IMG/VR virus record: IMGVR_UViG_3300032285_000220
Span: 1-53,919 of that record
DNA from: a virus
Taxonomy: Duplodnaviria > Caudoviricetes
Reading direction: 5' to 3' (one strand)
Length of the DNA stretch: 53,919 nt
Below are positions 9,678-33,300 of this stretch, one piece after another. The translations under genes were made by a program, and so were the position numbers. A model generated the notes under the pieces. It ran no database searches and was not told the DNA's origin. It saw nothing but the letters and a program-made list of their open reading frames with translations. The first letter of the stretch is position 1. Each line of letters starts with the position of its first letter.

Positions 9678-9959
9678 ATGGCACATTTTGCAAAAGTAGT
9701 AGACGGTAAGGTTACACAGGTCATCGTGGCTGAACCAGAATTTTTTGATACATTCGTAGATTCAAGTCCTGGCACTTGGTTACAAACTTCATATAATACT
9801 CATGGTAATCAACACCCAGAAGATAGACCTTTAAGAGGTAACTATGCTGGTATTGGTTATACATATGATTCAGTGAATGATGTATTCTACGCACCAAAAC
9901 CAAGTGACACAGCAGTGTTAAACGAAACAACATGGTTATGGGAAGAACCTGAGGCTTAA
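9678..9959 (+). CDS. Small tail-associated protein (MAHFAK family)
   Basis: MAHFAKV...WLQTSYN...RGNYAGIGYTYD...FYAPKP; commonly adjacent to Gly-rich fibre genes. Confidence 0.6.
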   Translation: MAHFAKVVDGKVTQVIVAEPEFFDTFVDSSPGTWLQTSYNTHGNQHPEDRPLRGNYAGIGYTYDSVNDVFYAPKPSDTAVLNETTWLWEEPEA

Positions 9960-9961
9960 TA

Positions 9962-10990: not shown

Positions 10991-12507
10991 GTTATATAGG
11001 TAACAGCCCAATATCACAAGCATTTGTCACAGACCAATTTAGTGGTACTGGGTCTCAAACTGCGTTCACAATGTCAGTGGCTCCGGCTAATACTGCGTCA
11101 TGTATCGTGGCTGTATCTGGTGTTCTTCAAGACCCAAGTACTTACTCAGTATCAGGCACAACCCTAACATTCTCAGTAGCGCCACCAACTGGTACGGGAA
11201 ATATCTCCGTGCGCTATTTAGGCATTCCTGCAACAGGAGTGACCACAACAGCCTATAGAACGGTAACAGAATTCACAGCAACAGCATCACAAACTACATT
11301 CACACCACCTTCATACACAGTTGGCTTCTTAAATGTATATAGAAACGGTGTCTTACTAGGTTCAGCTGATTACACAGCATCAAACGGAACAACAGTAGTA
11401 TTAGCTACAGGATGTATCGTAGGAGACTTAGTCACTACAGAATCATTCTTAGTATCATCAGTGCTTAATGCTATACCTAATACAACAGGATCTATATCAA
11501 GTAGTAACTTACCTGCTGGTTTAACAATTACTACACCAACTTTAACTTCACCAGCTATTACAGGAACACCGACTGTAGGTGGACAAAACCTTACACCATA
11601 TACAATGAAGAATAGGTTTATTAATGGAGGTATGGCTATTTCTCAAAGAAACGGAACTTCAAGTGCTTCATTTTCTGCTGGTGCTATTACATATGGCGTA
11701 GATAGATTCTTTTTATATCCAACTGGAGCAGCGGTTACTGGACAACAAGTTACAGGAACAAATACAGGAACAGGATATGCTTTTAGAATTACTGGTGCAA
11801 CTGGAAATACTGCTTGTAACTTTTCTCAAAGAATTGAAAATTTAAACACATTAGATTTAAATAGTACATCAGTAACTATAAGCTTTAAAGCATATGCCTC
11901 TACATCAATTAGTAATATACAAGTAGCGGCATTTTGTGGCACTTCTGCAAATACTGGATATGGATCAGGAAGCAATGCTTTTTCTTCAATATTTTCTTTA
12001 TCTTCTGGATTAAATACCATATCTCAAACAATTACTTTACCTGCTACAGCATCTAATGGATTTGAATTGGCAATAGGATTTGGTTCTGGTATAGGTAATG
12101 GAGTTACAGTTGATATATCAAATGTTCAACTAGAAGTAGGTTCATACGCAACTCCTTTTGAGTGGAGACCTTATGGTATGGAGTTACAGTTGTGTCAGAG
12201 GTATTTGCCAGCTTTTGGAGGAAATGGTACTGGTGGTGAATATTTTGGATATAGTTACACTACAAATGGTTCTGTTATATTTTTCCCATTTCCAGTATTG
12301 GCAAGAACAGCACCTACATCATTGACTACTACAGGTACCTTTACTGGTTATAATGCTGCTAATTCATCATCGTCAGCTACATTTGGATTTAATACTGCAG
12401 ATTCATTATGTGCATCAGTAATATCCAACTTTACTTCTACATCAGGAACTCCATCAAGAGTTAATTTGGGAGCAGGAAGAGTATTTTTTAATGGATGTGA
12501 ACTATGA
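10987..12507 (+). CDS. Tail fibre protein with carbohydrate-binding-like domain
   Basis: N-terminus paralogous to 8395; KNRFINGGMAISQRN...VQLEVGSYATPFE...ELQLCQRY domain shared with 15146. Confidence 0.7.
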   Translation: MSYIGNSPISQAFVTDQFSGTGSQTAFTMSVAPANTASCIVAVSGVLQDPSTYSVSGTTLTFSVAPPTGTGNISVRYLGIPATGVTTTAYRTVTEFTATASQTTFTPPSYTVGFLNVYRNGVLLGSADYTASNGTTVVLATGCIVGDLVTTESFLVSSVLNAIPNTTGSISSSNLPAGLTITTPTLTSPAITGTPTVGGQNLTPYTMKNRFINGGMAISQRNGTSSASFSAGAITYGVDRFFLYPTGAAVTGQQVTGTNTGTGYAFRITGATGNTACNFSQRIENLNTLDLNSTSVTISFKAYASTSISNIQVAAFCGTSANTGYGSGSNAFSSIFSLSSGLNTISQTITLPATASNGFELAIGFGSGIGNGVTVDISNVQLEVGSYATPFEWRPYGMELQLCQRYLPAFGGNGTGGEYFGYSYTTNGSVIFFPFPVLARTAPTSLTTTGTFTGYNAANSSSSATFGFNTADSLCASVISNFTSTSGTPSRVNLGAGRVFFNGCEL

Positions 12508-12674
12508 TTTATAAACTATACAAAACACTTAATAATCAAGATGCAGCTATTGGTACTAATGAAGATGGCTCAACAGTAAGTTTTTTATTTGACGAAGATA
12601 ACACCGATTACCAACAATATTTAAAATGGTTAGAAGCAGGTAATGAACCTTTACCAGCAGAGGAAACACAATGA
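12504..12674 (+). CDS. Tail fibre assembly chaperone, 56 aa (not in ORF track)
   Basis: Translated by hand: MIYKLYKTLNNQDAAIGTNEDGSTVSFLFDEDNTDYQQYLKWLEAGNEPLPAEETQ. ATGA overlaps on both sides; paralog of 16250-16411. Confidence 0.75.
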   Translation: MIYKLYKTLNNQDAAIGTNEDGSTVSFLFDEDNTDYQQYLKWLEAGNEPLPAEETQ

Positions 12675-13525
12675 CAAGAGCCGTAAACGTATCATCTTTT
12701 ACACCTACATCTTGGACAACAGCAACCCGTCCAGCTTCGCCTAATACGGGGCAGATGGGATATAACACAACAACAAATGCGATGGAGTATTATAATGGGT
12801 CAACTTGGAATGGATTAGGTTCAAACTCATACGCTTATGCAGCTACAGTTTTAACTGTGGGTGGTGGAGGTGGCTCTACTGGTGGTACTGGAGGAGTTAA
12901 TTATGGTGCAGGTGGTGCTGGTGGTGTATTAAGATCATCAAGTATAAACTTAATTTTAGGTACAGTTTATACAGCTACTGTAGGCGCAGGTGGAACAGGT
13001 ACAACTTCTGGAACTCCTCAATCTGGAGGAACATCATCATTTACAGGGGCTACAAGCGCTACAGGTGGTAATGGTGCAGCAAGTTCAAGTTTTGCTGGAG
13101 GCAGTAATGCTGATTATTCTGGAGCAGCTGGACCTGGAGGAACTGCTTCAGGTGGTGGTGCTGGTGCTGGGGCTAATGGATCTAGTTCAACTGGTGGAGC
13201 GGGAGCAGCATCGTCTATTACAGGATCTTCGATAACATATGGAGGCGGCGGTGGTGGTATCATTGGAGGTGCTGGAGGCGCTGGAGGCGCTGGAGGTGGA
13301 GGTGCAGGTAATGGTTCAGGTGCTGGAACGAATGGTACAACGAATTTAGGTGGAGGCGCTGGAGGTTCAGCTTCTGGTACATTTGCAAATGGTGGATCAG
13401 GTGTAGTGATTATTTCTGTCCCAACAGCATCTTATTCAGGCACAACTACAGGAAGCCCAACCGTGACAACATCAGGAAGTAATACTATAATTAAGTTCAC
13501 AAGCTCAGGATCATATACAGCATAA
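12671..13525 (+). CDS. Glycine-rich tail fibre/receptor-binding protein
   Basis: Paralog of 9962-10990 (WTTATRP.SP..G..GYNTTT...EYY; near-identical C-terminal ~35 aa). Confidence 0.7.
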   Translation: MTRAVNVSSFTPTSWTTATRPASPNTGQMGYNTTTNAMEYYNGSTWNGLGSNSYAYAATVLTVGGGGGSTGGTGGVNYGAGGAGGVLRSSSINLILGTVYTATVGAGGTGTTSGTPQSGGTSSFTGATSATGGNGAASSSFAGGSNADYSGAAGPGGTASGGGAGAGANGSSSTGGAGAASSITGSSITYGGGGGGIIGGAGGAGGAGGGGAGNGSGAGTNGTTNLGGGAGGSASGTFANGGSGVVIISVPTASYSGTTTGSPTVTTSGSNTIIKFTSSGSYTA

Positions 13526-13534
13526 GGATAAACT

Positions 13535-13747
13535 ATGGCATTAACTAAAGTACAAGCAGCAATGATAGGTGGAACAGCGGGCACTCAAGCCTTTGCTCCA
13601 GGCGTACCTATTTATGAAAATACTTTATCTATATCTACAAGTTACACAATTTCATCAGGTTCTTCAGCCATGTCTGTAGGTCCTATAACAATTAATTCAG
13701 GTGTGGCAGTGACTGTACCTGCAGGGAGCAAGTGGGCGGTATTATGA
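13535..13747 (+). CDS. Small tail-associated protein
   Basis: AAGGA RBS; YEN...ISTSYTI.SG.SAMSVGPITINSGV.VTVP.GS.W motif. Confidence 0.6.
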   Translation: MALTKVQAAMIGGTAGTQAFAPGVPIYENTLSISTSYTISSGSSAMSVGPITINSGVAVTVPAGSKWAVL

Positions 13748-14301
13748 GTTCAATTACACTTAATGGCGATATTTCAGGACAAGCTATAATTCAGGCTCCA
13801 AGTGTAGCAGGTACTCCTACGCTTACACTTCCTACAACAAGTGGTACTTTTTTAACAACAGCTAATACATTTGCAAATAGTGGTGGGCCTACATTTAGTG
13901 CATATCCAAGTGGTGTTCAGTCAATACCAAATTTAACATGGACTAAATTAGCTTTTCAAGTAGAAGAATGGGATACAGCAAACTGTTTTGATAATACTAC
14001 TAATTATAGATTTACACCTAATGTAGCTGGATATTACCAACTTAATGGTGGAGTTCAATGGTCTGGTGCAACATTTGCTGGTGAGAACGGAATACAATTT
14101 TATAAAAATGGTAGTGGATGGAAAACTACCCAAGATTTAAACGCAGCTGCTTATGGTGTTTCAGGCTCATGTTTAGTTTATTTAAATGGCACAACTGATT
14201 ATGTTGAGATGTATGTTATCCAAGGTTCAGGTGGAGCTAAAAATACCTATGCTGGAACACAATCTACATTTTTCCAAGCAGCAATGATTAGGGGAGCATA
14301 A
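13744..14301 (+). CDS. Tail fibre protein with C1q/TNF-like C-terminal domain
   Basis: PTFSAY...EEWDTANCFDNTTNYRFTPNVAGYYQ...LVYLNGTTDYVEMY. Start taken at the ATG overlapping the previous stop (MSSITLNG). Confidence 0.6.
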   Translation: MSSITLNGDISGQAIIQAPSVAGTPTLTLPTTSGTFLTTANTFANSGGPTFSAYPSGVQSIPNLTWTKLAFQVEEWDTANCFDNTTNYRFTPNVAGYYQLNGGVQWSGATFAGENGIQFYKNGSGWKTTQDLNAAAYGVSGSCLVYLNGTTDYVEMYVIQGSGGAKNTYAGTQSTFFQAAMIRGA

Positions 14302-15146
14302 TGGCATCAACGATTAACGCAACAACAAGTTCAGGCATAGTTACCACAGCGGATAACACAGGTTCATTACAGCTTCAAACAACAGGTACAACTGCGCTTA
14401 CTGTTGATACATCACAGAATGTAAGTATTGGCACATTATCAAGTAATGGAAGATTAACCGTTCAATCTGCAGGAACAAGCACTACTGCAGGAGCAAATAT
14501 AGTTGCAAGATTTCAAACCAATGGATCTGGTTACGATTCTTCTATTCAATTTTCAGACAATGTAGCCAATTCTGCTGTCATAAGTATGACAAGTGGGGCG
14601 TTAAACTTTATATCTAATGGTGTTCAATATGCAAAAATAGACTCTAGTGGTAGAGTGTTAATTAATACTACAAGTACAACTGGTGGTGGTGTTACTGCGG
14701 GATTAATGAATTTAGTATCTTCAGCAGATTTTGGTATCGTATTAAGTATGCCATCTGGCAATTATCAAGCAATGAGATTTGTAGATGGAACTACAGCTGT
14801 TGGTTCTATTAATTTAACAACATCTTCTACAACTTACGGAACTTCATCTGATTACAGATTAAAAGAAAACATTGCACCAATGACAGGTGCATTGGATAAA
14901 GTGGCACAACTTAAACCTGTTATATATACATGGAAAGCAGATAATACTACAGGTCAAGGTTTTATTGCTCATGAACTTCAAGAAATTATACCAGATGCAG
15001 TTGTGGGTGAAAAAGATGCAGTCAATGAAGATGGTTCTATAAGACCACAAAGTATAGATACATCATTCCTAGTAGCAACTCTAACAGCCGCCATTCAAGA
15101 ACTAAAAGCAGAATTAGATGAATTAAAAGCAAAGGTAGGTAAATAA
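14301..15146 (+). CDS. Tail fibre/spike with peptidase S74 intramolecular chaperone
   Basis: TSSDYRLKENI...GFIAHELQEIIPDAVVGEKD...LTAAIQEL plus a C-terminal coiled coil, the S74 autocleavage signature. Confidence 0.85.
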   Translation: MASTINATTSSGIVTTADNTGSLQLQTTGTTALTVDTSQNVSIGTLSSNGRLTVQSAGTSTTAGANIVARFQTNGSGYDSSIQFSDNVANSAVISMTSGALNFISNGVQYAKIDSSGRVLINTTSTTGGGVTAGLMNLVSSADFGIVLSMPSGNYQAMRFVDGTTAVGSINLTTSSTTYGTSSDYRLKENIAPMTGALDKVAQLKPVIYTWKADNTTGQGFIAHELQEIIPDAVVGEKDAVNEDGSIRPQSIDTSFLVATLTAAIQELKAELDELKAKVGK

Positions 15147-16249
15147 TGTCTCTTATCATTGACGGAACCAATGGCGTTACCTTTAACGACTCATCTCTAC
15201 AAGGAGCTGCAGCGTCACCTTATGTGCTAAAGAACCGTATTATAAATGGTGACATGAGGATAGACCAAAGAAATGCTGGTGCATCGACAACTCCTACTTT
15301 AGATCAAACATATACTTTAGATAGATGGGCTGCTGGTTTAAGTGCTGGTTCAAAATATAGCGTGCAACAAAATGCAGGTTCTGTAACGCCTCCATCTGGA
15401 TTTACTAATTATTTAGGTGTAACTTCTTTATCTTCTTATACAGTTGGTGCATCTGATTATTTTTATATTAATCAAAGAATTGAAGGATATAATGTTTCTG
15501 ATTTAGCTTACGGAACTGCATCAGCAAAAACAATAACACTTTCATTTTGGGTTCGTAGCTCTCTTACAGGAACATTTGGTGGTTCTGTTTTTAACGCAAA
15601 TAGTAGTTATACTTATCCATTTACATATACCATATTAGCAGCTAATACATGGGAACAAAAGTCAATAACTATTGCTGGAGATACTGCACGCGCTTTAGCA
15701 ACAACAAATGGTCTTGGTTTTTTAGTTTCATTTGGATTAGGAGCTGGTTCTACTTATAGTGCAACTGCTGGTTCTTGGCAATCAGGGCTTTTTGTTTCAG
15801 CTACAGGTGCAACATCAGTCGTAGGCACTAACGGAGCTACCTTCTACATCACAGGTGTACAACTAGAAATAGGCACATCAGCAACACCGTTTGAACGCAG
15901 ACTTTATAATCAAGAATTGGCTAATTGTCAGAGGTATTATTGGAAAAATATAGTAACAGTAGCAAATGCAGGATTTGGACTTGTGGGGGCTTTTAGCAGT
16001 ACAACAACTTTATATTGCTCTATTCAATACCCTGTTCCAATGAGAACAGCTCCAACTATAACACAATCAGGAACTAGTATAGCAAATGGAGCTGTGGGTT
16101 CTGTGGTAACAAGTATTCCAGGAGCAACTATAGGAGCTAATGGAGCAGTGATTGGATTTACTGCTGGAGCATCATTTACAATAGGACAAGGTGGATATGT
16201 ATATGGACCAACAATTGGTAATTATGTAGATTACACAGCGGAGTTATAA
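15146..16249 (+). CDS. Tail fibre protein with carbohydrate-binding-like domain
   Basis: KNRIINGDMRIDQRN...QRIEG...TLSFWVRS...VQLEIGTSATPFE...CQRYY. Confidence 0.7.
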   Translation: MSLIIDGTNGVTFNDSSLQGAAASPYVLKNRIINGDMRIDQRNAGASTTPTLDQTYTLDRWAAGLSAGSKYSVQQNAGSVTPPSGFTNYLGVTSLSSYTVGASDYFYINQRIEGYNVSDLAYGTASAKTITLSFWVRSSLTGTFGGSVFNANSSYTYPFTYTILAANTWEQKSITIAGDTARALATTNGLGFLVSFGLGAGSTYSATAGSWQSGLFVSATGATSVVGTNGATFYITGVQLEIGTSATPFERRLYNQELANCQRYYWKNIVTVANAGFGLVGAFSSTTTLYCSIQYPVPMRTAPTITQSGTSIANGAVGSVVTSIPGATIGANGAVIGFTAGASFTIGQGGYVYGPTIGNYVDYTAEL

Positions 16250-16411
16250 ATGTATAAACTAATTAAAGACCATCCAATTTTTGGGAGTGCTAATTCTATT
16301 ATTAGGACTACAGATGGTGCATCTATCCCATTTGACCCAGCTAACACAGACTACCAAGCCTACCTAAAATGGGTAAGTGAAGGCAATGAACCTTTACCTG
16401 CGGACGAATAA
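16250..16411 (+). CDS. Tail fibre assembly chaperone, 53 aa (not in ORF track)
   Basis: Translated by hand: MYKLIKDHPIFGSANSIIRTTDGASIPFDPANTDYQAYLKWVSEGNEPLPADE. GGAG RBS; TAATG coupling to the next gene. Confidence 0.75.
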   Translation: MYKLIKDHPIFGSANSIIRTTDGASIPFDPANTDYQAYLKWVSEGNEPLPADE

Positions 16412-17319
16412 TGTTTGGATACGCTGCCTTTGCTCAACCACCTTTTGCATCTCTTGCGGGAACAGCATACAGCCTATCTTTAACTGAAAATATTAATATG
16501 GCTGATACAAGTAGCCAAGTGTGGGCGTTTAACCCATCAATTACTGAGAATGTTGTGATGAACGACATTAATGCTCCAGCAGGTCAGTTCTATGGATTGA
16601 TTAACGAAGTTATTACTATGGCAGATACACCAACTATATCTGCTCAATTTGCAACAAACTTAACTGAAAATTCAGTTTTAAACGACACACCAACTATAGC
16701 AGCAGGATTCGCACAAAGCGTTACTGAAAACTCTAACTTAGCTGATACATCAACTCAGTACTTTGCAGCGTTAGAAGACCGAGTAGAACCATTTACAATG
16801 AACGATGTAAGAAGCATAGCAGCACAGTTCTTAGCTAGTTTAAATGAAAATAGTAACTTAAATGATACACCAAGTATAGCTGCGCAATTTGCACAAAGCG
16901 TAGTAGAAAACGTTAATCTAAATGACGCCAACACAGCATTTGCAGGGTTTGTAGCAAGTCAAGCTGAAAATATAACCATGGCTGATGTAGAAACTATTGT
17001 CTCTATATTCTTGTTTAATATTGTAGAAAACTTTAATCCCGCAGATAGCAACACAGTTAGCACTAATTACAACATATCTATTATTGAAAACTCTAACCCT
17101 CAAGATGTCTATTCTGTAAGAGCAGATTTAAACTTCACTATAGATGAAGTCTTTACAATGTTAGATAAGATTTGCTACAACGGCTGGTTTAAGATTGACG
17201 ATAGTCAAACAGCTTCTTGGTCTGTAGTTGCAGGTCCTGCTACAGCGGGCTGGGTTGATATAAATGATGGGCAAACACCAAGTTGGGGCGCAATTGATAC
17301 CTCGCAATCATGCAGTTAA
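16411..17319 (+). CDS. Virion structural protein with ~12 tandem 20-aa repeats
   Basis: MFGYAAFAQPPFASL N-terminus; repeats carry invariant E and D; Trp-spaced C-terminus. Confidence 0.65.
   Translation: MFGYAAFAQPPFASLAGTAYSLSLTENINMADTSSQVWAFNPSITENVVMNDINAPAGQFYGLINEVITMADTPTISAQFATNLTENSVLNDTPTIAAGFAQSVTENSNLADTSTQYFAALEDRVEPFTMNDVRSIAAQFLASLNENSNLNDTPSIAAQFAQSVVENVNLNDANTAFAGFVASQAENITMADVETIVSIFLFNIVENFNPADSNTVSTNYNISIIENSNPQDVYSVRADLNFTIDEVFTMLDKICYNGWFKIDDSQTASWSVVAGPATAGWVDINDGQTPSWGAIDTSQSCS
16471..17167 (+). repeat. Degenerate 60-nt (20-aa) tandem coding repeat
   Basis: For example ATNLTENSVLNDTPTIAAGF / LASLNENSNLNDTPSIAAQF / AQSVVENVNLNDANTAFAGF. Confidence 0.75.
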
Positions 17320-17354
17320 TGTATAATACGGATAACTAAAATAAAGGATTTATT

Positions 17355-18455
17355 ATGGCAAGTACCTATTCAAACCTCAAGATAGAACTTATTGGTACAG
17401 GTGACCAGTCTGGTACCTGGGGGGTAACTACAAATACAAATTTAGGCACAGCGATTGAAGAAGCGATTACAGGATCAGCTGACGTTACTTTTGCAAGTGC
17501 TGATGTTACTTTAACCCTATCTAATACCAATACTTCTCAAACTGCTCGTAACTTACGTTTAAACTTAGTAGGTACAGTAGGTGCTGCTCAAAACTTAATT
17601 GTTCCTAATATTGAAAAGCAATACATTGTTAATAATACTTTAGGCTACGATATTACAATTAAGAATTCAACTGGCACAGGTGTTGCAGTTCCTGCCGGTA
17701 AATCTATGATTGTATTTAATACAGGTACAAACGTAGTTGAAGTAGTCACAGCTCTAGCAACAGGCACAGTGATTCCAGTAGCTAACGGTGGTACTGGCGT
17801 TACAACATCCACAGGTACAGGCAGCGTTGTACTAAGTGCAAGCCCAACTTTAACAGGCACACCTCTAGCTCCAACAGCAACACCTGGTACTAACACAACT
17901 CAAATTGCAACAACTGCATTCGTACAAAACGTAGCTGGATCTTTAGGAACATTATCTTCACAAAATGCTAACGCTGTAGCTATTACAGGCGGCGCTATAA
18001 ACGGTACTACAGTAGGCACTACTACTGCAGCTGCGGGTGCATTTACTTCATTGTCTGCAAATAGCGTTACATCATTAGGTGAAACAACAACTGTATCAGC
18101 AACTGCTGCAACAGGTACAATTAATTATGACGTTATTACACAAGGTCTTCTCTACTACACATCAAATGCGATTGCTAATTGGACTGTGAATTTTAGAGGA
18201 AATAGCTTAACAACGTTAAATACGTTAATGGCTGTTGGCGAAACAAGAACAGTAACTTTCTTAGTCACACAAGGTTCTGTGGCATACTATAACACTGCAG
18301 TAACTGTAGATGGAGTTTCTGTAACACCTAAATGGCAAGGGGGTTCAGCACCAACTTCAGGCAATACATCAGGTATTGATGTGTATACGTACAGCATTAT
18401 TAAAACAGCATCAGCTACATTTACAGTATTAGCATCACAAACACAGTTTAAATAG
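17355..18455 (+). CDS. Tail fibre/tail structural protein
   Basis: MASTYS.LKIELIGTGDQSGTWG.TTNTNL N-terminus; SPTLTGTP.APTA..GTNTTQIATTAFV fibre motif. Confidence 0.7.
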   Translation: MASTYSNLKIELIGTGDQSGTWGVTTNTNLGTAIEEAITGSADVTFASADVTLTLSNTNTSQTARNLRLNLVGTVGAAQNLIVPNIEKQYIVNNTLGYDITIKNSTGTGVAVPAGKSMIVFNTGTNVVEVVTALATGTVIPVANGGTGVTTSTGTGSVVLSASPTLTGTPLAPTATPGTNTTQIATTAFVQNVAGSLGTLSSQNANAVAITGGAINGTTVGTTTAAAGAFTSLSANSVTSLGETTTVSATAATGTINYDVITQGLLYYTSNAIANWTVNFRGNSLTTLNTLMAVGETRTVTFLVTQGSVAYYNTAVTVDGVSVTPKWQGGSAPTSGNTSGIDVYTYSIIKTASATFTVLASQTQFK

Positions 18456-18464
18456 GACTAGTTA

Positions 18465-20264
18465 ATGCCTTTAAATATAACTACAGGTACGATGTCTGCA
18501 CGTGGTTTTGGGATTGTTACTCGAAACTACTATAATTTATCGTTAACAATTTCATCTAATACAACTAGTTATAATGTAAGAACTGCAGCATTAGCTGCTG
18601 GATGGACAGGTAATAATCCTCTAAATTTAACTTTAACTATTAATTCTGGTGTTACAGTATCAGGTACAGGTAACGGTACTTCTGCAGCTTTATTACTTAC
18701 AAGCTTAGTTCCTAAATCAGTTATTACTATTAACAACAATGGTACTATTGTAGGTAGTGCTGGTTCTGCTGGTTATAAAACTTCTAACTCAGGTGCAGAA
18801 AGTTATCCTGGTAACTACACAGGTTCATTTGTAACTCCTACTTTCCCTAACAACTATGGCGGCACAGGTTATCCAACAGGTCCAGGTGCTGGTGGTTCCT
18901 CTCCTGGTTACAACTATTTCTCAGGCGGTACATCACCTAGTGCTGGATCAGGTACTGCTGGTGGTTCTGCTATTTATCTTGCGTCAAATGTTTATTTAGT
19001 AATTAATAATAGTGCTACAGGTATAGTTACAGGTGGCGGTGGCGGTGCTGGTGGACAAGCAGGTAATAATGCTGGTGGTGGTTCTGGTGGTAATGGCGGA
19101 TATTGTATTGAAGAAACAGGCCCACATCAAGCTGTCATTGCTAATAATATAGCTGGTGGTATTATAGCTTCAGGTGGTGGTGGCTCTCCTGGATGGGGTA
19201 ATAGATATGAAGGTGACGGTGTTGGTGGTCGTCCAGGTAATAACGGAATTATTTATCAATTAAATAATGCTAACTATGGAGCTGTTGGAATATCACCAGG
19301 TTTAGCTACAAATAATACAAGCACAACATTAATTAATACAACAGGTCAATTTACATTATCAACTGCAAGTACTGCGGCATTACTTTTCTTATCAAGTACA
19401 ACATGGGTTGCTCCTCCAGGAATTACATCTATATCAGTAACAGCAGGTGCGGCAGGTGGTGGACAAGGTGGTAATTATTTTGATACAGGTCAAACATTAA
19501 GAATAGGTGCTGCAGGTACAGCGGGTCAAGTTGTAGCAGGTACAGTTGCAGTTACACCAGGTCAAACATATACAATTACTATAGGATCAGGTGGTGGATT
19601 TGGTCGAGATAGTTTTTATAGTGCTGTTGGCGGTGCTGGTGGAGCAGGTTATGCTAGTGGTACTTCAGGTACTGCAAATGGTAATGGTTCAGGTGGTGGC
19701 GGTGGCGGTGCAACTGCATTTATATTAAATACTACTGCATTGGTAGTAGCAGCTGGCGGAGCTGGAGGTACAGCTTCAAATGGAACTGGTGGTGGTGGCG
19801 GAGCTGGTGGAGGTTCTAATGTTATACCTTCCGGAGGTTCAGCAACTTTAGGATCTAATGGTGGCGCGGCTTCATCTATAGCTTCCGTTTATAGTGGATC
19901 ATATTCTAATGGTGGAGGTGCAGGACCGCTACAAACAATTCAAACTGCTATCTCAACAACCTATCCATATTTAGCAGATTCATTAGGTGCTGTTACAGGT
20001 GGGGGTAATGACTGGAACTTCCCTATGATTTTATCTGCAGGCACTCTTTTATGGGCAGCAGGTGGTTCAGGTACATTTGTAGATTCAGCTTATTCAACAC
20101 CATATACTACTTTAAATAGCGGTGGATTCTCTATGGGTAGAACTGTATCTGGTATTAACTTTGCTACAGGTGCTACACAAGGTAACGGCGGATCAAGTTA
20201 TAACTTCTATTTCGGATTCACCTACAATAATGGTGGTAATGGATATCTAACTATTACGTATTAA
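18465..20264 (+). CDS. Glycine-rich tail fibre/receptor-binding protein
   Basis: AGGA RBS; INNNGTIVG.AG, GGGGGAGG and TWVAPPGITSISV...VTPGQTYTITIG.GG domains. Confidence 0.65.
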   Translation: MPLNITTGTMSARGFGIVTRNYYNLSLTISSNTTSYNVRTAALAAGWTGNNPLNLTLTINSGVTVSGTGNGTSAALLLTSLVPKSVITINNNGTIVGSAGSAGYKTSNSGAESYPGNYTGSFVTPTFPNNYGGTGYPTGPGAGGSSPGYNYFSGGTSPSAGSGTAGGSAIYLASNVYLVINNSATGIVTGGGGGAGGQAGNNAGGGSGGNGGYCIEETGPHQAVIANNIAGGIIASGGGGSPGWGNRYEGDGVGGRPGNNGIIYQLNNANYGAVGISPGLATNNTSTTLINTTGQFTLSTASTAALLFLSSTTWVAPPGITSISVTAGAAGGGQGGNYFDTGQTLRIGAAGTAGQVVAGTVAVTPGQTYTITIGSGGGFGRDSFYSAVGGAGGAGYASGTSGTANGNGSGGGGGGATAFILNTTALVVAAGGAGGTASNGTGGGGGAGGGSNVIPSGGSATLGSNGGAASSIASVYSGSYSNGGGAGPLQTIQTAISTTYPYLADSLGAVTGGGNDWNFPMILSAGTLLWAAGGSGTFVDSAYSTPYTTLNSGGFSMGRTVSGINFATGATQGNGGSSYNFYFGFTYNNGGNGYLTITY

Positions 20265-20272
20265 GGATTTAT

Positions 20273-20740
20273 ATGAAAAAATTAATTATATTTTTAGTAG
20301 CTTTGTTTTTGATGGGTTGCACCATGTACACTTGGGCTGACACCACTGTAATTCAAAATAAAGGTATGCCAGTACAAAGTGCTATGGCACCAAGTATGTC
20401 TGCGTTCTCACAAGATGTTTGTGCAGTACCAGTTAGTGGTGCGGGTAACTTTGGTGTTGTATCAGTATCAGGCGGTACAGTTATGCTAGATCAAAACTGC
20501 GTTAAAATTAAGTTAGCAAAAACATTAAATGATTTAGGACTTAAAGTGGCTGCAGTATCTGTGCTATGCCAAGATCCAACTGTGTGGGATGCTATGGAAA
20601 TGAGTGGGTCACCTTGCCCTATGGGTGGTGCTGTAGGTGCTGCTGCTAAGAAAGCTTGGTTCACTAAGTATCCTGAAAGGTTTAAAAAATTATATGGCGA
20701 GGATTATAATATTCCTGCTTTGCCTCCTACTAAGGAATAA
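20273..20740 (+). CDS. Exported/periplasmic protein of unknown function (possible lipoprotein)
   Basis: Signal peptide MKKLIIFLVALFLMGC (lipobox-like LMGC, or SPase I site TWA-D); four further Cys; AAGGA RBS. Confidence 0.65.
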   Translation: MKKLIIFLVALFLMGCTMYTWADTTVIQNKGMPVQSAMAPSMSAFSQDVCAVPVSGAGNFGVVSVSGGTVMLDQNCVKIKLAKTLNDLGLKVAAVSVLCQDPTVWDAMEMSGSPCPMGGAVGAAAKKAWFTKYPERFKKLYGEDYNIPALPPTKE

Positions 20741-21884
20741 TGCATATGCATATTGTTACGCGAATCAGTGGGCGAGTTATGGGCCTGTATTCTCAAGTCT
20801 TGGCGTTACTCAAGGCACTACTATGCAAGCTTGTCAACAACTTGCGTGCCAAATATATCCAGGTATTCCAGAGTGTGGCATGTTTTTACAACCAGCCTGC
20901 TCAAATCAAACTGAGTATCAGTCGCTTAGTTGCCAACCTCATTATTCAGGCGCAGTTAATCAAAGCAGGACTTATACATGTTCTTCACAGAGTTGGGGAC
21001 CTTGGACAACAACTTCTAACAATTGCACACCAGATCCTCCAACGTGTCAAAGCTCTTTTTCAACGAGGACACTAAGTTGCCAACCGCATTTTTCAGGACT
21101 TATATCACAGACAAATACGGTAACGTGTCCAGACCCGTATGGATCTCCTGTAGAAACAGGGTACATAACTACATCAAATTCATGCGCACCCGATCCGGCT
21201 ACGTGCAGTCCATCAGTGCAAACTCAGTCAGTAGCATGTCCAGTGGGTTACAATGGTACAATAATACAAAATCGTTCTTCAAGTTGCTCGGATCCATATG
21301 GTTCGCCAACATGGACATCATGGTCGACAACGTCAGATACTTGCACGATGACAGCGACGAACTTAAACAACCCAACATCGCCAATAAGTCCGATCAGTCC
21401 AACGAATCCGAACTCGGTGATAAGCAAGTCAATGGCGACTGTGGAATCTGTAACGGTACAAGACCTAACTGCTACTGCACCTACCCCATCAACAACAAGT
21501 GTGGATACACCAAAATCAGAAAGTCAATCTGGGACAGCAACGACTTCAACAAGTCAACAGGCAAACGGTACTACGACGACATCGGGTACCGATAAGAAAG
21601 AAAATATAAAAGCCCCAGACGTACCAAAGGGCAAAGATTTAGTACCAGGATTTGGCATAGTAATGTCTATGCAGCTTTTAAACTCAGGCTACAACCTGCA
21701 GCAAGAACAAATGAAAGAATATATTAATTTAATACAGGAACAAGAATATGGACAACAACAAAACATACTCCTTGAATTTATCAGCGCAAATGATACTGGG
21801 AATTCTATTTTCAATACTAGTGCCATTAGGTGGCGCGGTTTACTACGGGATAACCCTCTTCAACGATTTGACCTCGACGATTGA
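20694..21884 (+). CDS. Exported Cys-rich repeat protein
   Basis: Probable start MARIIIFLLCLLLRNNAYA (signal peptide); three ~50-aa 4-Cys repeats; S/T/P-rich linker. Confidence 0.65.
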   Translation: MARIIIFLLCLLLRNNAYAYCYANQWASYGPVFSSLGVTQGTTMQACQQLACQIYPGIPECGMFLQPACSNQTEYQSLSCQPHYSGAVNQSRTYTCSSQSWGPWTTTSNNCTPDPPTCQSSFSTRTLSCQPHFSGLISQTNTVTCPDPYGSPVETGYITTSNSCAPDPATCSPSVQTQSVACPVGYNGTIIQNRSSSCSDPYGSPTWTSWSTTSDTCTMTATNLNNPTSPISPISPTNPNSVISKSMATVESVTVQDLTATAPTPSTTSVDTPKSESQSGTATTSTSQQANGTTTTSGTDKKENIKAPDVPKGKDLVPGFGIVMSMQLLNSGYNLQQEQMKEYINLIQEQEYGQQQNILLEFISANDTGNSIFNTSAIRWRGLLRDNPLQRFDLDD

Positions 21885-22143
21885 GGAAGTAAAAAAGATG
21901 AGCTCAGTTGAGACTCGCATCGTAGTATTAGAAGATAGATCTAAATCAGTAGAACGTCAATTAGTTGATGTGATGATGTCTAACAATAGATCTCTTGAAA
22001 AAGCTAATGAAGCTTATGGTAAAGCCATTGAAGCAAACAGTGTTGCTAAAAGTACTGCAGATAAAGTTGTAGATACCGTAACTAATGTTAAAGACGAAAT
22101 GAAACAATTAAGAAAGGCAATGGTTAATCCATTGAATAACTAA
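21748..22143 (+). CDS. Membrane-anchored coiled-coil protein
   Basis: AGGA RBS; one TM helix (MILGILFSILVPLGGAVYYGI), then heptad-rich helix ending NPLNN; overlaps the previous gene by 137 nt. Confidence 0.65.
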   Translation: MDNNKTYSLNLSAQMILGILFSILVPLGGAVYYGITLFNDLTSTIEEVKKMSSVETRIVVLEDRSKSVERQLVDVMMSNNRSLEKANEAYGKAIEANSVAKSTADKVVDTVTNVKDEMKQLRKAMVNPLNN

Positions 22144-22144
22144 T

Positions 22145-22630
22145 ATGCTATCTATACTATCATCTATATTAGGCTTTGCTACAGCAGGTCTACCTAGCAT
22201 ACTAGGTTTCTTCCAACAAAAGGGGGATCAAAAACATGAAAAAGAAATGGCTCAGTTGCAAATGCAACAACAAATGGCTATGGCTGAGAAAGGTTTTCAA
22301 TCTCAAGAAAAACAAGCTGAAATTGCTTTGGAGGGTACATATGCAGAAACATTTGCTCAAGAACGTCAAGCTTTGTATGAACACGATGCTAAATTGGTGC
22401 ATGATGCTGCACCTTGGGTTAGAACTCTTAATGCCTCTGTCCGTCCTCTTGTTGCTTTCATTTTTGTAGGCTTATTATTATTTGTAGATATTGGCGGTTT
22501 TATTTGGGCAGTTAAAACTGTAGGCTTTAGTGCAGAAGCTATGGATGTAATCTTCTCTAATGATGAAATGGCAATTGTATCATCCATTATTGGATTTTAC
22601 TTTGGCGCTAGAACTTGGGAAAAGAAATAA
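22145..22630 (+). CDS. Putative holin (3-TM type)
   Basis: Hydrophobic N-terminus, ASVRP.V motif, two further TM segments, IIGFYFGAR C-terminus; immediately before the lysozyme. Confidence 0.6.
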   Translation: MLSILSSILGFATAGLPSILGFFQQKGDQKHEKEMAQLQMQQQMAMAEKGFQSQEKQAEIALEGTYAETFAQERQALYEHDAKLVHDAAPWVRTLNASVRPLVAFIFVGLLLFVDIGGFIWAVKTVGFSAEAMDVIFSNDEMAIVSSIIGFYFGARTWEKK

Positions 22631-23080
22631 GTGAATGTATCAAAAGCTGGTATTGCTCTTATCAAACATCATGAAGGCGTTCGTAATAGGCCTTACCGTG
22701 ACTGTATTGGGCTTTGGACTGTGGGTGTTGGTCATCTCATCGGGGATGGTAAATCATTGCCTGAATCTTGGAACAAGACTTTTACAACGGAGGAAGTAGA
22801 TGCAATTCTTAGAACCGATTTACGTCGCTTCGAGCTTGGAGTATCTAAGATGTTACCTAACGTGCCTCTTAGACAGTGTGAGTTCGATTGCCTTGTATCT
22901 TTTGCCTTTAACGTTGGCTTGGGTACATTTCAGCGGTCAACACTCCGTCAGGCGCTTCTTCGCGGGGATAAAACGCAAGCTATGGAATCGTTAGTGAAAT
23001 ATTGCCGTGCAGGTGGTAAAATAGTCAAAGGATTACAAACTCGTCGTTTGGACGAAAAAGCTCTTTTTGAAGGTAAATAA
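22631..23080 (+). CDS. Endolysin, phage lysozyme (GH24)
   Basis: IKHHEG..RPYRD..G.WTVGVGH catalytic E-D-T motif; FDCLVSFAFNVG; GL.TRR..E..LF. Confidence 0.9.
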   Translation: MNVSKAGIALIKHHEGVRNRPYRDCIGLWTVGVGHLIGDGKSLPESWNKTFTTEEVDAILRTDLRRFELGVSKMLPNVPLRQCEFDCLVSFAFNVGLGTFQRSTLRQALLRGDKTQAMESLVKYCRAGGKIVKGLQTRRLDEKALFEGK

Positions 23081-28987: not shown

Positions 28988-30322
28988 ATGTATAGTAAAT
29001 CTCATGTAGGTGGCATTGATTTAAATAGAGCTCTCAATGATTTAGTTCAAGCAGGACTAAGAGATCCTAATATACTTTTAAAGTATAGTCAAAATCCTCC
29101 ACCAGAATATGGTGCTAACGGTAAAATGTTAGTTAGCTTAGCAGCTAATGCTGTTGCTCGTGATAAACAAGCCGCTAAAACTATGCAGCCTACTCCTACT
29201 AAAACTGTTGCAGAACAAGTTAATAATAAATTAGCTGCTGCTACTCAACCGCAAGGTATTGCTGGTTTAACTAATCAAGCTCCTCCTACAGAAGCAGGTA
29301 TTAATACTCCACCAGCGGAACCAGCACCTCAATCTATGGATGGTGGCGTTGCTTCATTACCTGTTGATGAAGGTATGTATAATGAACAAAATTATGTAGG
29401 TGGTGGTATTGTTTCATTTGCTAAAGCTGGTCGTGTAGAAGCACCCGAAGATTATAATTACAAATATGGTTATGAATCTTATTATGATCAACCAACAGCA
29501 GCTTTAATGGAAGTACCTACAGTTCCTACTGATGAAGATTTAAAAACACAAACCCTTGCTCTTAAAAAAGGTTTTGTAGATCCTAATTTTTATGGCACTC
29601 AAGAAAAAACATTAGCTGATCAAACAGCACAAGATGTTGCTGAATCTAAAAAAATGGGTCAAGCAGATATTTATATGGCTTTAGCTGAAGGCTTTGGTAC
29701 TACTCCTGGTGGTTTATTAAAAGGCGCCACTGCAGCGGGAATTAAAGCACGCCCTGCTATTATGGAAATGAATAAAAACATTCTAGCTGCTAAACGTTCA
29801 AACCGTGATGCTATTAATAAACTTAATCAAGCTAAATATGCTGAATCTGTGGGTGACTTTAAAACAGCTATGGAACTTAGACAATCTGCTCAAAAAGATG
29901 CTTTTGAAGCTAAGAAAACTAATGCTACTCTTGAAACACAAATTGGAGTTGCACGTGCTAAAAATAAAGGTACTAAAGGTACTGATTTAGCAAAACTTAG
30001 ACGTGATATTGATAAACTAGCAGTAGAAGATTTTGAAAAGACTCATGGTGTAGGTTCATTTAATACTTTATTTATGAAGAATAAAGCTAAGTACTTAGAT
30101 GAATTTAATGCTCTTCGTAGACAACACGAAGACTATATACTTGGTGGTATTTCTGCTGATCCTACCAAAGAACAAACTAAGTTTAATGCTACTCAACCTT
30201 TAAGAGCTGCATCCAATAAAGGTAAAATAGTAAAAGCACCTAACGGTAAATCCTATAGACAAGTGGGCCCTAATCAATATGAACCTTTAGGTTCAGAGGA
30301 CGAAGAAGACGACAATGGCTAA
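28988..30322 (+). CDS. Internal virion/ejection protein
   Basis: AGGA RBS; helical, QGIAGL and GGIVSFA motifs; position before the giant gene. Confidence 0.55.
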   Translation: MYSKSHVGGIDLNRALNDLVQAGLRDPNILLKYSQNPPPEYGANGKMLVSLAANAVARDKQAAKTMQPTPTKTVAEQVNNKLAAATQPQGIAGLTNQAPPTEAGINTPPAEPAPQSMDGGVASLPVDEGMYNEQNYVGGGIVSFAKAGRVEAPEDYNYKYGYESYYDQPTAALMEVPTVPTDEDLKTQTLALKKGFVDPNFYGTQEKTLADQTAQDVAESKKMGQADIYMALAEGFGTTPGGLLKGATAAGIKARPAIMEMNKNILAAKRSNRDAINKLNQAKYAESVGDFKTAMELRQSAQKDAFEAKKTNATLETQIGVARAKNKGTKGTDLAKLRRDIDKLAVEDFEKTHGVGSFNTLFMKNKAKYLDEFNALRRQHEDYILGGISADPTKEQTKFNATQPLRAASNKGKIVKAPNGKSYRQVGPNQYEPLGSEDEEDDNG

Positions 30323-33300
30323 ATATTACACTGCTGAAGAGCTAGGGCTCAATCAAAGCAGTGAAGATCAAGAACCTGTTTCAAACAAGAAATATTTTAC
30401 TGCTGAAGAAATAGGCCTTACTCCTCAAAAAGAAGAAAAGCCTAAAGAAACTAAAAAGTTTTTAACAGCTGAAGATATTGGGTTACCTCCTGAAGAAGCT
30501 CCAAAAGAAACTACTAAAGAAGAATTAACACCTCCTACAAAACCTTCTGGTTGGACTAGAAGACTTCTTGGTGATCAAGCAGTTACATTAGCACAAGGTG
30601 CTGTTGGCCTTAGACAAATGATATCTGGAGTAGAAGATTTAATTAGCTTAGGTTATATTGGTAAAGCTAAAGATACTCTTCGTGATTTTTATAAAAGTCA
30701 TGGACTTCCTGTTCCCCCATCTGATGAAGATATTAGAACATCATTAGAAAATCTTAAATCTCCTCAACGATTATATAAAACTCAAGAAGCTGATATTGCA
30801 GCTCAAGAAGCGGCTAAAGGTAAGCCTTGGTATAAAGCGGTTCCAGCTGCTACATTAGAGTATGCTAAACGTCCTGAAGCAGCTCTTGATGTTGTAGAAC
30901 AATCTCTTCCATCTATGATTGGTAGTGAAGTTGCTATTGGTCGTAATTTATTACCTAAAGTATTTCCTAAATTAGGTGCTGTAAGTCGAAGCGCTATTTC
31001 TGAAGGTTCTGCTCAAGCTACATCAATGGCAGAACAAACACGTTTACAAAATGAAGATAAAGCTTTAACTCTTAAACAAGAAGCTGCATCTATTATAAGT
31101 GGTGTATTAACAGGAACTATGGGAGCTTTTGGGGGTAAGATTGCTCAAAAGTTAGGTTTAACTGATATTGATACTGTAATTGTAGGAGCTACAAGTAAAA
31201 CAGCTACAGCTGCAGAAAAGCAGGCAGCAAAAAGTGTATTAGCTCAAACTATTAAATCATCACTTGCTGAATCAACTTTAGAAGAACTTCCTCAATCTAT
31301 GCAAGAGCAAATTGCTCAAAACTATGCTACTGGTCGTCCATGGGATGAAGGCGTTGCAGAGGCTGGTGCAAAGGGACTTATTGCAGGTTTAGTAACTGCA
31401 GCTCCAATAACGGCTTACACTCAACATAAAGAAAATCAAGATATATATCAAAAGCAACGAGATGAACTTCATAAACAAACATTAGAAGAACAACAGAAAA
31501 AAGCTAATCCTACTCGCGATGCACAAATTAAAACTATATTTAAAGATTTAGATGAACAAGCAAAACAAACATTAGCGGAAAAACAAGCTGAAGCTGATAA
31601 ATTAAAATCAGCTCAACAAGCCCAAGTAGTTAACGAAGCTCAAGATTTGGAAAGTATGCCCGCTCCAGATCAAGGTATACTCACTGATACTACGTTAACT
31701 TCGTGGGGACTCAACAAAAACAGTAAAGCATATAAACAGTTAATTGGTAAAGACGTATCTACACCAGATGGCCGAAAGCTAATGGAGGATGCATTAGATG
31801 CACATACTGGTAAACTAAACGAACAAGCTGTAAGCACCTTTACAAATATTTTAGATCAGAAAGCTGAGGCAGCAAATGCAGGACTTGACACTGGAACAAC
31901 TACAATTAGCGATGCAATATCTGGAGGACAAAAATATGGAACTCCCGGAGGAACTCAAGGACGTTTCGGACCTACAACTAATATCAGTGGAAGTGTTGCT
32001 GGACTCACTCAAACTGGAGAAGAAACAAGCGACGATACATTAGCCGCTGAAGCAGAATCTAAATTATCTACAATCCCTGGATTCAAACGATTCTCTATTA
32101 AAAAAGCTGATGGCACAATATCTGAAGGTTGGACAAGAGATAATGCTACGGATATAGATGAACAGAAAGATGAAGAAGAAGCTAATGCTAATGAAGTTTT
32201 AAAAACTGAAGAAGACCTAGCACCTGACTTTAAAGTCACTCCTCAAAAAGTTAAAGCTGAAGAAGCTCCTGAAGTACCAACACAACAAAAGATAGGTAAA
32301 CAGTTAAAATCTCTTGATCCATCTAATCCTCTTATAGAAGGCCTATTAAATAATCAAGCTTCTGATGTAGAAATGGAAGAAGCTCAAAAAGCTATTAATG
32401 ATATTATTGCAGAACGTAAAGCTAAAAAAGTAGATCTTACTAAACCTTCAGAAATTGAAAGAGAAGAGTTTAATGTTGAAGATACTGATCTTGGTACCAA
32501 TCGTGAACTACAGCCTGAAGTAGTAGCATCAACAGCTAAAGCTAAAACATTAGGTCAAGCACTTAATATTATTCAAAATGAACATAGTGATAAAACAAGC
32601 GATGCTGAAAAGTCTATTATCAAAAAACTATTAAATATACCTAATCTAGTTCATACCAAATATCAAACAAAAACACTTAACAAATTTAAAAATACTAGAA
32701 TAGGTGGTACTTTTAATAGCCTTTTAAACAAAGTAACCTTAGATACTCAGTTTGGTAATGTTAAAGCGTTAATTCATGAAGCGGTACACTCAGCTACTGT
32801 TGCCGCCTTACGTAAAGCAGTCTATACAACACATCATGTAAACAAAAAGCTTAAGCAGGCTGGCATGAGTCCAGAAGATTATACTACTTCAGAACATGTA
32901 GGTAGAACTGAAGCTGGTAAACGTATGGTTAAAATATACAATGCTGCTTTGCAGAACTGGATGCAAAACGATAAAATTCTTAAACCGTATGGACTAAAAG
33001 ATATATTTGAGTTTACATCAGAAGCGTTATCTAATCCTGAGTTCCAAAAGTTTTTAGCAGATATACCTAGTGTTGAAGGTGGTAAAGCACAAATATCATC
33101 ACTATGGACAGACTTTGTAGAAGCAGTTAAGAAGCTTCTTAACCTAGGTGATATATCTAATACACTTCTAAATGATGTATTATCAGTTGCCCCTGAATTA
33201 ATGGAAGGTCCTAAAAAAGGTATTTTTGATAGGATTAGGGATGAAGCTTCGACAGCTGAATCCTTTGTCTATGAACAAAGAACTCAAGAAGAGATGGATC

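Follow-up and report, generated by a model that had tools for sequence, protein, structure and literature searches.

The closest described counterparts of the genes treated here are the two-component spanins, such as Rz/Rz1 of phage lambda and PseT.3/PseT.2 of phage T4, the unimolecular spanin gp11 of phage T1 and, to our knowledge, a single alternative to spanins described so far, a cationic peptide. Here we analyze a module of three genes, hereafter the trio (P1, P2 and P3), carried by the IMG/VR viral record IMGVR_UViG_3300032285_000220 (53,919 bases, completeness estimate 85%), the whole of which is referred to below as the window. In Kongari et al. (2018; PMC6139136), 91 of 677 phages of Gram-negative hosts, about one in seven, are classified as 'no spanin found', and by the criteria given there phages carrying the trio would mostly fall into this class. 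A preprint (bioRxiv 10.1101/515445) describes gp28 of phage phiKT, a 'disruptin', as a cationic peptide by which a phage without spanins disrupts the outer membrane. Within the articles covered on pelagiphages, spanin-less lysis, multi-component spanins and phage CRP-810, nothing was found that treats the trio genes.

We tentatively propose that the trio encodes a spanin-like device that spans the periplasm and serves in the final step of lysis. It constitutes a concrete and widespread candidate for the outer-membrane step in phages without a recognisable spanin, and its carriers include cultured phages that infect SAR11, the most abundant of marine bacteria. An earlier note on this DNA, drawn from its letters alone, had seen in the three genes an uncharacterised envelope complex acting as an alternative lysis device, as a superinfection exclusion or receptor-masking system, or as a surface adhesin. 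The first option is favoured here, since holin and endolysin genes accompany the trio in phages that differ widely; a likeness to pilus proteins that had also been suggested found no support, nor can P1 be considered a lipoprotein throughout its family, lipoboxes being found in 64 of 119 close relatives.

The trio and the lysis cassette

The trio, a holin-family gene and a lysozyme gene make up a single tightly packed late cassette, with the following features.

20273-20740, plus strand: P1, 155 amino acids (aa), exported lipobox protein (open reading frame and translation)
20694-21884, plus strand: P2, 396 aa, exported protein with cysteine repeats and a stalk
20694-20740, plus strand: P1/P2 overlap, 47 nucleotides (nt) in two reading frames
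20898-21359, plus strand: three four-cysteine repeats of P2, about 50 aa each (aa 69-222)
21360-21647, plus strand: serine-, threonine- and proline-rich (S/T/P) stalk of P2, predicted to be disordered (aa 223-318)
21648-21881, plus strand: conserved C-terminal region of P2 (aa 319-396)
21748-22143, plus strand: P3, 131 aa, bitopic membrane protein
21748-21884, plus strand: P2/P3 overlap, 137 nt, encoding the P2 tail together with the N-terminus and membrane helix of P3
21790-21861, plus strand: membrane helix of P3 (about aa 15-38)
22126-22134, plus strand: C-terminal N-P-L of P3, an invariant motif
22145-22630, plus strand: putative holin, 161 aa, relative of GTA_holin_3TM (context, outside the trio)
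22631-23080, plus strand: endolysin, phage lysozyme of 149 aa (context, outside the trio)

The three open reading frames (ORFs) and both overlaps are confirmed as the earlier note had placed them, and they run directly into the lysis genes: 1 nt separates the P3 stop codon from the holin gene, which abuts the lysozyme gene. The lysozyme matches PF00959 (E = 9e-34) and the endolysin family phrog_7 (E = 7.6e-44). The 161-aa membrane protein reaches 16.6 bits (E = 0.011) against PF11351 (GTA_holin_3TM), for which the curated cut-off is 24.8 bits, and is 31% identical (E = 2e-24) to a protein of Mosig, a pelagiphage and myovirus, that exceeds this cut-off with 25.8 bits; it is considered here as a putative holin related to this family.

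The window contains no canonical Rz/Rz1 pair, in agreement with what had been noted before. A six-frame lipobox scan passed P1 and a 25-aa antisense ORF inside another gene, and nothing else; no lipoprotein ORF is embedded in P3 or follows it. Among 15 loci bearing P3-like genes (loci are designated L001 and so on), lipobox ORFs around these genes were detected only in L006, where the ORF is P1 itself, and in CRP-810.

The description of the trio as uncharacterised also stands, as no known family covers it. The search of P1, P2 and P3 against Pfam, PHROGs and NCBIfam returned no significant match other than that of P1 to phrog_20531, a family of unknown function (E = 3.3e-11), the PDB sequence search gave nothing below E = 0.18, and no structural PHROG was matched beyond a weak coiled-coil match. 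An identity with the curli type VIII secretion system (CsgG/CsgF/CsgA) was rejected, none of the three proteins matching a Csg family in Pfam; the curli secretion cluster of HTVC023P-type pelagiphages is a different gene set (PMC9599517).

Anatomy of the three proteins

The N-terminus of P1 consists of a basic and hydrophobic signal region leading to a lipobox, L-M-G-C (Cys16), with threonine at position +2. Four further cysteines (positions 50, 76, 99 and 115) lie in a conserved domain of about 100 aa. The AlphaFold2 (AF2) model, a beta-hairpin followed by five helices, has a predicted local distance difference test score (pLDDT) of 79, exceeding 90 in the core. Compared with solved structures, it gave no Foldseek match in the PDB at E <= 0.001 and a best Z of 3.1 in the wide VIA-align search; its matches in BFVD were limited to uncharacterised viral proteins, and those of P1 in the ESM Atlas to unnamed viral clusters. 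Of the whole trio, the mature P1 domain has the widest distribution, with 1604 relatives in a word-indexed search and 803 representative clusters (50% identity) at E <= 0.001. A typical relative comprises a signal peptide, an asparagine-, threonine- and serine-rich linker of up to about 200 aa, the four-cysteine domain of about 100 aa and a charged tail. Clean lipoboxes of several forms occur in 64 of the 119 close relatives with a complete N-terminus; the pelagiphage forms are devoid of lipobox. A scan of 27 longer relatives revealed no informative additional Pfam domain, and two of them include fragments of unrelated cytoplasmic enzymes and look like mis-called or fused ORFs.

Several variants were observed among P1-like proteins. 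Those referred to as 'type II' end in a glycine-rich hydrophobic tail and have no lipobox (L038 4812-5369, L039 4719-5399, L041 4809-5426, L045 2274-3443, L046 4857-5459 and L059 4501-5100), the tail serving either as an alternative anchor or for sorting. Upstream of P1, L001 encodes a small helical protein with a tail anchor (5592-5768); in L022 (3418-3999) this protein is continuous in frame with P1, and its membrane helix would then act as the P1 signal. P1-domain proteins with a proline/alanine-rich tail were also found on the chromosome in metagenome-assembled genomes (MAGs) of Hyphomonadaceae/Caulobacteraceae (L053 4317-5408, L055 3939-5408, L056 4113-5414), next to glutathione S-transferase, M20 peptidase, alcohol dehydrogenase and racemase genes, with neither P2 nor P3; they may represent the cellular source of the domain.

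The start of P2 is best set at the ATG at 20694, and an identical protein in a public collection (P0005) is also called as 396 aa. Its signal peptide (aa 1-19) comprises an M-A-R n-region, a 10-residue hydrophobic core and an A-Y-A cleavage site, and the mature part holds 16 cysteines in an even, repeat-wise pattern. A variable cysteine-rich N-terminal module (aa 20-68) precedes the three repeats (aa 69-117, 118-170 and 171-222), which share 20-23 identical residues over 53 positions; these repeats, first pointed out in the earlier note, are real, with pairwise z = 8.7-13.5 and none of 500 shuffles reaching the score, and AF2 folds them into small beta modules (pLDDT about 85-95). Serine, threonine and proline account for 47% of the 96-aa stalk (pLDDT 28-49). 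The C-terminal region displays the invariant columns G319-F320-G321, W380 and Q390 and a D-N-P-L motif near its end, and is modelled as a long helix (323-384) at low confidence (pLDDT 42-62).

The resemblance of the P2 repeats to type IV pilus tip adhesins, suggested in that note, is not supported, as no pilus protein was matched by sequence or by fold. The best PDB sequence for the repeats, at a weak E = 0.2, is the complement control protein (CCP) region of MASP-1. P2 has no match in Pfam at E <= 0.1 and none in the ESM Atlas. With the whole model, Foldseek yielded only propeller-like noise (root-mean-square deviation > 30), and VIA-align matched the long helix only (Z 5.5), its list being dominated by this C-terminal helix and the repeats thereby barely tested. 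In the alignment of P2, for which 487 relatives were found, conservation is seen in the signal peptide, a short post-repeat segment and a final stretch of ~85 residues, the N-terminal module exists in several unrelated versions, the number of cysteine repeats varies from about 2 to 7, and the stalk drifts.

P3 has a single hydrophobic segment (about aa 15-38), after which a helical region with a heptad pattern forms a coiled coil. Taken together with the signal peptides of P1 and P2, the features of the trio are thus those of exported and membrane proteins rather than of virion proteins, as had been proposed. The N-terminus of P3 is probably inside, judging from basic residues that precede the helix in the 'type II' relatives. 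For P3, 298 relatives were found. Insertions of 7 and 11 residues in the coil keep the coiled-coil periodicity, and another of 5 residues directly follows the membrane helix. The three sub-families (window, pelagiphage and 'type II') are linked by profile comparison with a probability of 93-96% and E = 2.5e-7 to 2.5e-9 per comparison, scores that are inflated by membrane helices and coiled coils; pairwise BLAST gives no link between them. We take them as one family mainly because they share G-G-x-x-[FY] after the helix and the invariant N-P-L end. Across the three sub-families, the P1 domain and the N-P-L end of P3 remain constant, and the P2 tail and the P3 coil change together. Prediction of a complex between aa 38-131 of P3 and aa 300-396 of P2 returned a score of 0.00 against a mark of 0.32, which speaks neither for nor against binding.

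Conservation among close relatives

The close set comprises 24 loci (L001 and L003-L025), 23 of which come from a scan of IMG/VR with P2, the last being the GenBank phage MW202481.1. P1 and P3 are each present in 23 of the 24; the holin gene is found in 21 loci and the lysozyme gene in 20. Wherever a gene is absent, the DNA ends before it. P1, P3 and the holin are highly conserved together. In 17 loci, identity to the window protein amounts to 81-95% for P3 and only 46-58% for P2, the low values for P2 arising because the head module, the repeat number and the stalk vary. The P2 head does not co-vary with the gene upstream of P1: one and the same fibre C-terminus accompanies head A in L007, head B in L009 and head B' in L019 and L020, and head B is found with five different upstream genes.

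The overlapping arrangement of P1 and P2 recurs in related loci, and the overlap of P2 and P3 is kept at 134-143 nt in L001, L003 and L014, even where P3 is only 27-31% identical. Protein features are kept in both frames of the latter overlap, and both frames are therefore coding. A gene for an SprT-like metalloprotease, absent from the window, lies between P3 and the holin gene in L001 (7524-7862, E = 5.2e-8) and L029 (5557-5895, E = 3.2e-4).

Distant occurrences and the link with lysis genes

A tblastn search with P1 recovered 13 phage records corresponding to 12 phages, ten of which were examined (AP013540.1 and MW202675.1 were left out). Nine of the ten encode a P1-like protein and, one to five genes later, a coiled-coil protein that has a membrane helix and carries N-P-L at its C-terminus; in Ralstonia phage RSP15, the P1-like domain stands alone. 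A P2-type protein of 350-611 aa is encoded between P1 and P3 in seven of them (MW202481.1, HTVC023P, HTVC202P, HTVC033P, HTVC115P, Baldr and Mosig), with a layout of hydrophobic N-terminal signal, head, acidic or S/T-rich low-complexity linker and conserved tail. In Baldr, one small ORF additionally precedes the P2-type gene, and the P2-type protein of HTVC115P, called from a GTG codon, shows no evident signal at its N-terminus. In the roseophages CRP-810 and CRP-207, P1 and P3 are retained and flank another middle gene, which is shorter and shows no evident signal peptide. A further 28 P1-bearing loci were recovered by scanning species-representative genomes, and 12 of them were inspected: eight display a P1-like gene, a gene for an exported protein of 300-750 aa and a P3-like gene, one has P1 and a 749-aa protein with no P3-like gene in range, and three are Caulobacterales MAGs with chromosomal P1-domain proteins among housekeeping genes. 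The three genes therefore co-occur in the 24 close loci and in distant phages, as expected of the single module assumed in the earlier note.

The genes surrounding the module usually include lysis genes, of various families. In L029, the trio is accompanied by the SprT-like gene, a GTA_holin_3TM gene (E = 6.6e-20) and a Peptidase_M15_3 gene (E = 3.6e-17), and in HTVC023P, gp45, gp46 and the P3-like gp48 are directly followed by an M15 peptidase gene. HTVC033P encodes an Amidase_2 endolysin (E = 9e-20) four genes upstream, and a GTA_holin_3TM gene lies directly 5' of the P1-like gene of Mosig. In L032 and L045 a holin-like gene is found between the P2 analogue and the P3-like gene, L032 having also a weakly GH19-like gene afterwards; CRP-207 has a holin-like gene 3' of its P3-like gene, a weak call. 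Other genes observed after P3-like genes are a Lipase_3 gene in L039 (8675-9382, E = 3.5e-23) and, in Mosig and L052, a gene for a tail-anchored DUF7201 coiled-coil protein (L057 4318-4746 and L052 7613-8104).

Several GenBank names in these loci have no support in Pfam. The 'lysozyme' gp51 of CRP-810 (L026 4710-5132) and the 'putative lysozyme' gp73 of CRP-207 (L061 3292-3873) are P3-like membrane coiled-coil proteins despite their names. The same lack of support applies to the 'OmpA family protein' gp53 of CRP-810 (L026 3324-4079) and to the 'transport protein tonB' of L001 (6153-7259).

A candidate device for the outer-membrane step

Starting from the anatomy, export signals, conservation and lysis-gene linkage documented above, we consider that the three proteins would most likely assemble into a complex bridging the inner and outer membranes through the cell wall. 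P3 would act as the inner-membrane anchor, with its N-terminus inside and a coiled coil of about 95 aa projecting into the periplasm and ending in N-P-L. P2, presumably Sec-exported and disulfide-bonded, would provide a variable head, a flexible stalk of about 95 aa and a conserved helical tail that could pair with the P3 coil. P1 would be a Sec-exported two-disulfide domain, lipid-anchored in the window phage, probably at the outer membrane, and this constant domain may bind the constant N-P-L end of P3. The outer membrane would be reached by the P2 head or by the lipid of P1. The low-complexity linkers of P1 and P2 could be long enough to span the periplasm. Once lysozyme has opened the wall, the complex would breach or detach the outer membrane, thereby standing in for the Rz/Rz1 pair. 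The linkage of the trio to holin and lysozyme genes in the close loci and to several endolysin classes beyond them, the i-spanin topology of P3, the absence of a canonical spanin and the lipoboxes of P1 in 64 of 119 close relatives all speak for this role in lysis. So do the linker lengths, the joint change of P2 tail and P3 coil next to a constant P1 domain and N-P-L end, and the coil insertions of 7 and 11 residues that preserve periodicity.

A more ambitious extension of this proposal, which we regard as possible and rather doubtful, is that the trio represents a third class of machinery for breaching the Gram-negative outer membrane at lysis, made of three parts and having no need of a lipid anchor. 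The swappable P2 head, disulfide-rich or lectin-like, would grip a host-specific glycan of the outer membrane or cell wall, P3 would carry P2 by its conserved helical tail, and P1 would lock onto the N-P-L end of P3; such a device would be the main solution in SAR11 phages and in many freshwater phages devoid of Rz/Rz1.

A number of observations weigh against a spanin-like device. Signal-peptidase-I sites replace the lipobox in 55 of the 119 close P1 relatives and in nearly all distant ones, and some distant relatives have a C-terminal hydrophobic tail in its place; lipoprotein nature, as read from these predicted signals, is not a trait of the P1 family, and the trio would thus have no constant outer-membrane anchor. 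The order lipoprotein gene, large exported protein gene, membrane protein gene fits none of the three known spanin architectures. The match of the P3 family to Rz-like PHROGs is weak (E = 0.021 for the window P3, 0.0067 for L001 and 0.012 for L006), and the pelagiphage forms have no such match. The swapping head modules of P2 resemble a host-recognition part more than a fusion part. In HTVC202P and Baldr, the trio adjoins a terminase gene, and the stretch examined contains no annotated endolysin. An anti-correlation between the trio and spanins, which the earlier note had suggested looking for, did not emerge, since L063 and L064, which carry the holin family without the trio, also show no canonical spanin. 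Finally, the spanin-like reading requires a host with an outer membrane, and the MAG labels are actinobacterial for one P1 relative and scattered over many phyla across P1-bearing contigs; these labels are untrustworthy. The cultured carriers of the distant module infect SAR11 and Roseobacter, both Gram-negative, which is no proof for the freshwater clade of the window.

Alternative explanations

Next to the spanin-like device, the alternative that fares best, and which we still deem unlikely, is that the trio serves superinfection exclusion, receptor masking or cell-surface adhesion. The trio would hold a sticky, disulfide-rich or lectin-like P2 head at the envelope and thereby block incoming phages, keep progeny off debris or aggregate cells. 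This would suit a P2 head that is modular and fast-varying, with several N-terminal modules and 2-7 repeats, as well as the position of the trio after a long run of tail-fibre genes in the window. Moreover, the HTVC033P analogue is named carbohydrate-binding protein in GenBank, and gp25 of HTVC202P has a weak CBM_4_9 match (E = 0.02). However, the type of P2 head is independent of the gene upstream of P1, which weakens a receptor-linked role, and the link with holin and endolysin genes is tighter than that with fibre genes. The likeness of P1 to the Cor lipoproteins is confined to the signal peptide, and P2 has no evident route across the outer membrane.

Control of lysis timing appears quite improbable. 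In this case, the exported proteins would work on the holin from the periplasm, as an antiholin or as a lysis-inhibition sensor comparable to T4 RI. The trio does lie 1 nt from the holin gene, in L032 and L045 the P2 analogue and the P3-like gene are separated by a holin-like gene, and P1, P3 and the holin are conserved jointly and strongly. Nevertheless, three exported proteins with long stalks and swappable heads go far beyond the needs of known antiholins, and the two partners are separable: HTVC202P and Baldr have the trio with no adjacent GTA-type holin, and L063 and L064 have the holin family without the trio.

We give slightly less credit still to the possibility that P1 and P3 constitute an ordinary two-component spanin with an unusual gene order, P2 being an unrelated passenger. 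In the window, a P1 lipoprotein (Thr at +2) and a type II P3 carry the two membrane signals that define a spanin pair, and the two roseophages keep P1 and P3 around a different and shorter middle gene. Against this, P1 and P3 are separated by a P2-type gene in 7 of the 10 phages and in every one of the 24 close loci, this gene overlapping those on either side of it in the window, and 55 of 119 close P1 relatives, like the pelagiphage forms, lack the lipobox.

That the trio encodes virion components, i.e., tail or fibre accessories within the structural gene block, is very improbable in spite of the tail-fibre genes upstream and the virion protein gene (phrog_3287) downstream of the cassette, since the cleavable Sec signals of P1 and P2 and the even, repeat-wise set of 16 cysteines in P2 point to folding in the periplasm, while the assembly of tailed-phage virions takes place in the cytoplasm, and since no structural PHROG is matched beyond the weak coiled-coil match and the trio lies away from tail genes in other phages.

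If, as we tentatively favour, the trio has its role in lysis, it would account for progeny release in these phages and provide three new lysis families for annotation pipelines; the envelope would then be bridged through a variable binding head and not through a lipid anchor. Should it be a surface or exclusion device instead, it would still represent an unstudied and very common late function of abundant aquatic phages.

Surroundings of the cassette in the window

Genes lie on the plus strand from 1 to 36041 and encode tail fibres, virion proteins and ejection proteins; the remainder carries replication genes (DNA polymerase, helicase and primase) on the minus strand. The virion protein gene downstream of the cassette matches phrog_3287 (E = 1.3e-56), and its product, encoded 3' of the lysis genes, is 29-32% identical to those of HTVC023P-type pelagiphages, Roseobacter phages and phage DSL-LC04, indicating distant kinship. 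An unusually long run of tail-fibre-like genes (8395-20264) precedes the cassette: at least five of its ORFs match tail-fibre PHROGs (E <= 1e-5) and two more do so weakly, and a 599-aa glycine-rich protein of the run, counted among the weak ones, has a weak Gly_rich_2 match. The plus-strand block ends with a 1908-aa ORF (30315-36041), of which only the N-terminal 460 aa match a PHROG (phrog_30335, function unknown, E = 2.6e-31).

A small DUF6321 protein is encoded at 1918-2181 (E = 1.6e-23). Small basic proteins adjoin the trio in CRP-207, CRP-810 and HTVC202P, and their C-terminal motif is similar, by eye only, to that of this DUF6321 protein. A scan for promoters and terminators revealed nothing exceeding shuffles. 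As for host clues, no tRNA was found, and 39 further window proteins scanned included no WhiB or other host marker.

Comparison with known systems

The trio is most readily compared with the two-component spanins Rz/Rz1 of lambda and PseT.3/PseT.2 of T4, with which it shares location in a lysis cassette, genes overlapping in different frames and periplasmic cysteines. As in an i-spanin, P3 has an N-terminal membrane helix and a coiled coil, the rest of the protein being predicted to be periplasmic, and would be a type II inner-membrane protein; P1 of the window is a lipoprotein, with the L-M-G-C lipobox and Thr at +2 looked for in an o-spanin, a lipobox present in 64 of 119 close relatives and in none of the pelagiphage forms. 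Unlike these pairs, the trio consists of three genes. An o-spanin gene is embedded in the i-spanin gene, overlaps its 3' end or directly follows it, whereas the lipoprotein gene comes first here, and a 1.2-kb gene separates it from the membrane-protein gene. P1 is also a folded two-disulfide domain rather than a short proline-rich chain, its lipobox is not conserved in the family, and sequence matches to spanin families, found for P3-family members, are weak and not significant (E = 0.007-0.02).

Like the unimolecular spanin gp11 of T1, the trio would be an envelope-spanning lysis apparatus, and in some distant P1-like proteins an export signal at the N-terminus occurs together with a hydrophobic tail at the C-terminus. 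Unlike gp11, no trio protein has both a lipobox and a C-terminal membrane helix: P1 has no C-terminal helix, P2 and P3 have no lipobox, and the tailed P1 forms have signals of the signal-peptidase-I type.

P2 recalls TonB and TolA by its long low-complexity stalk between two functional ends, and its homologue in MW202481.1 is named 'tonB' in GenBank. It differs from them by a signal peptide that is cleaved, leaving no N-terminal anchor, and by the absence of any TonB or TolA domain in Pfam, the name resting on linker composition.

The receptor-blocking lipoproteins Cor and Llp of T5 resemble P1 as small lipoproteins whose gene follows tail-fibre genes. The match of P1 to the Cor family (phrog_1119, E = 0.023) is limited to residues 1-19, i.e., the signal peptide, and unlike these lipoproteins P1 is accompanied by P2 and P3 and linked to lysis genes.

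Finally, the trio would join gp28 of phiKT, as described in the preprint cited above, as an alternative outer-membrane step in spanin-less phages, with the difference that gp28 is a single small cationic peptide, whereas the trio is composed of three large exported or membrane proteins.

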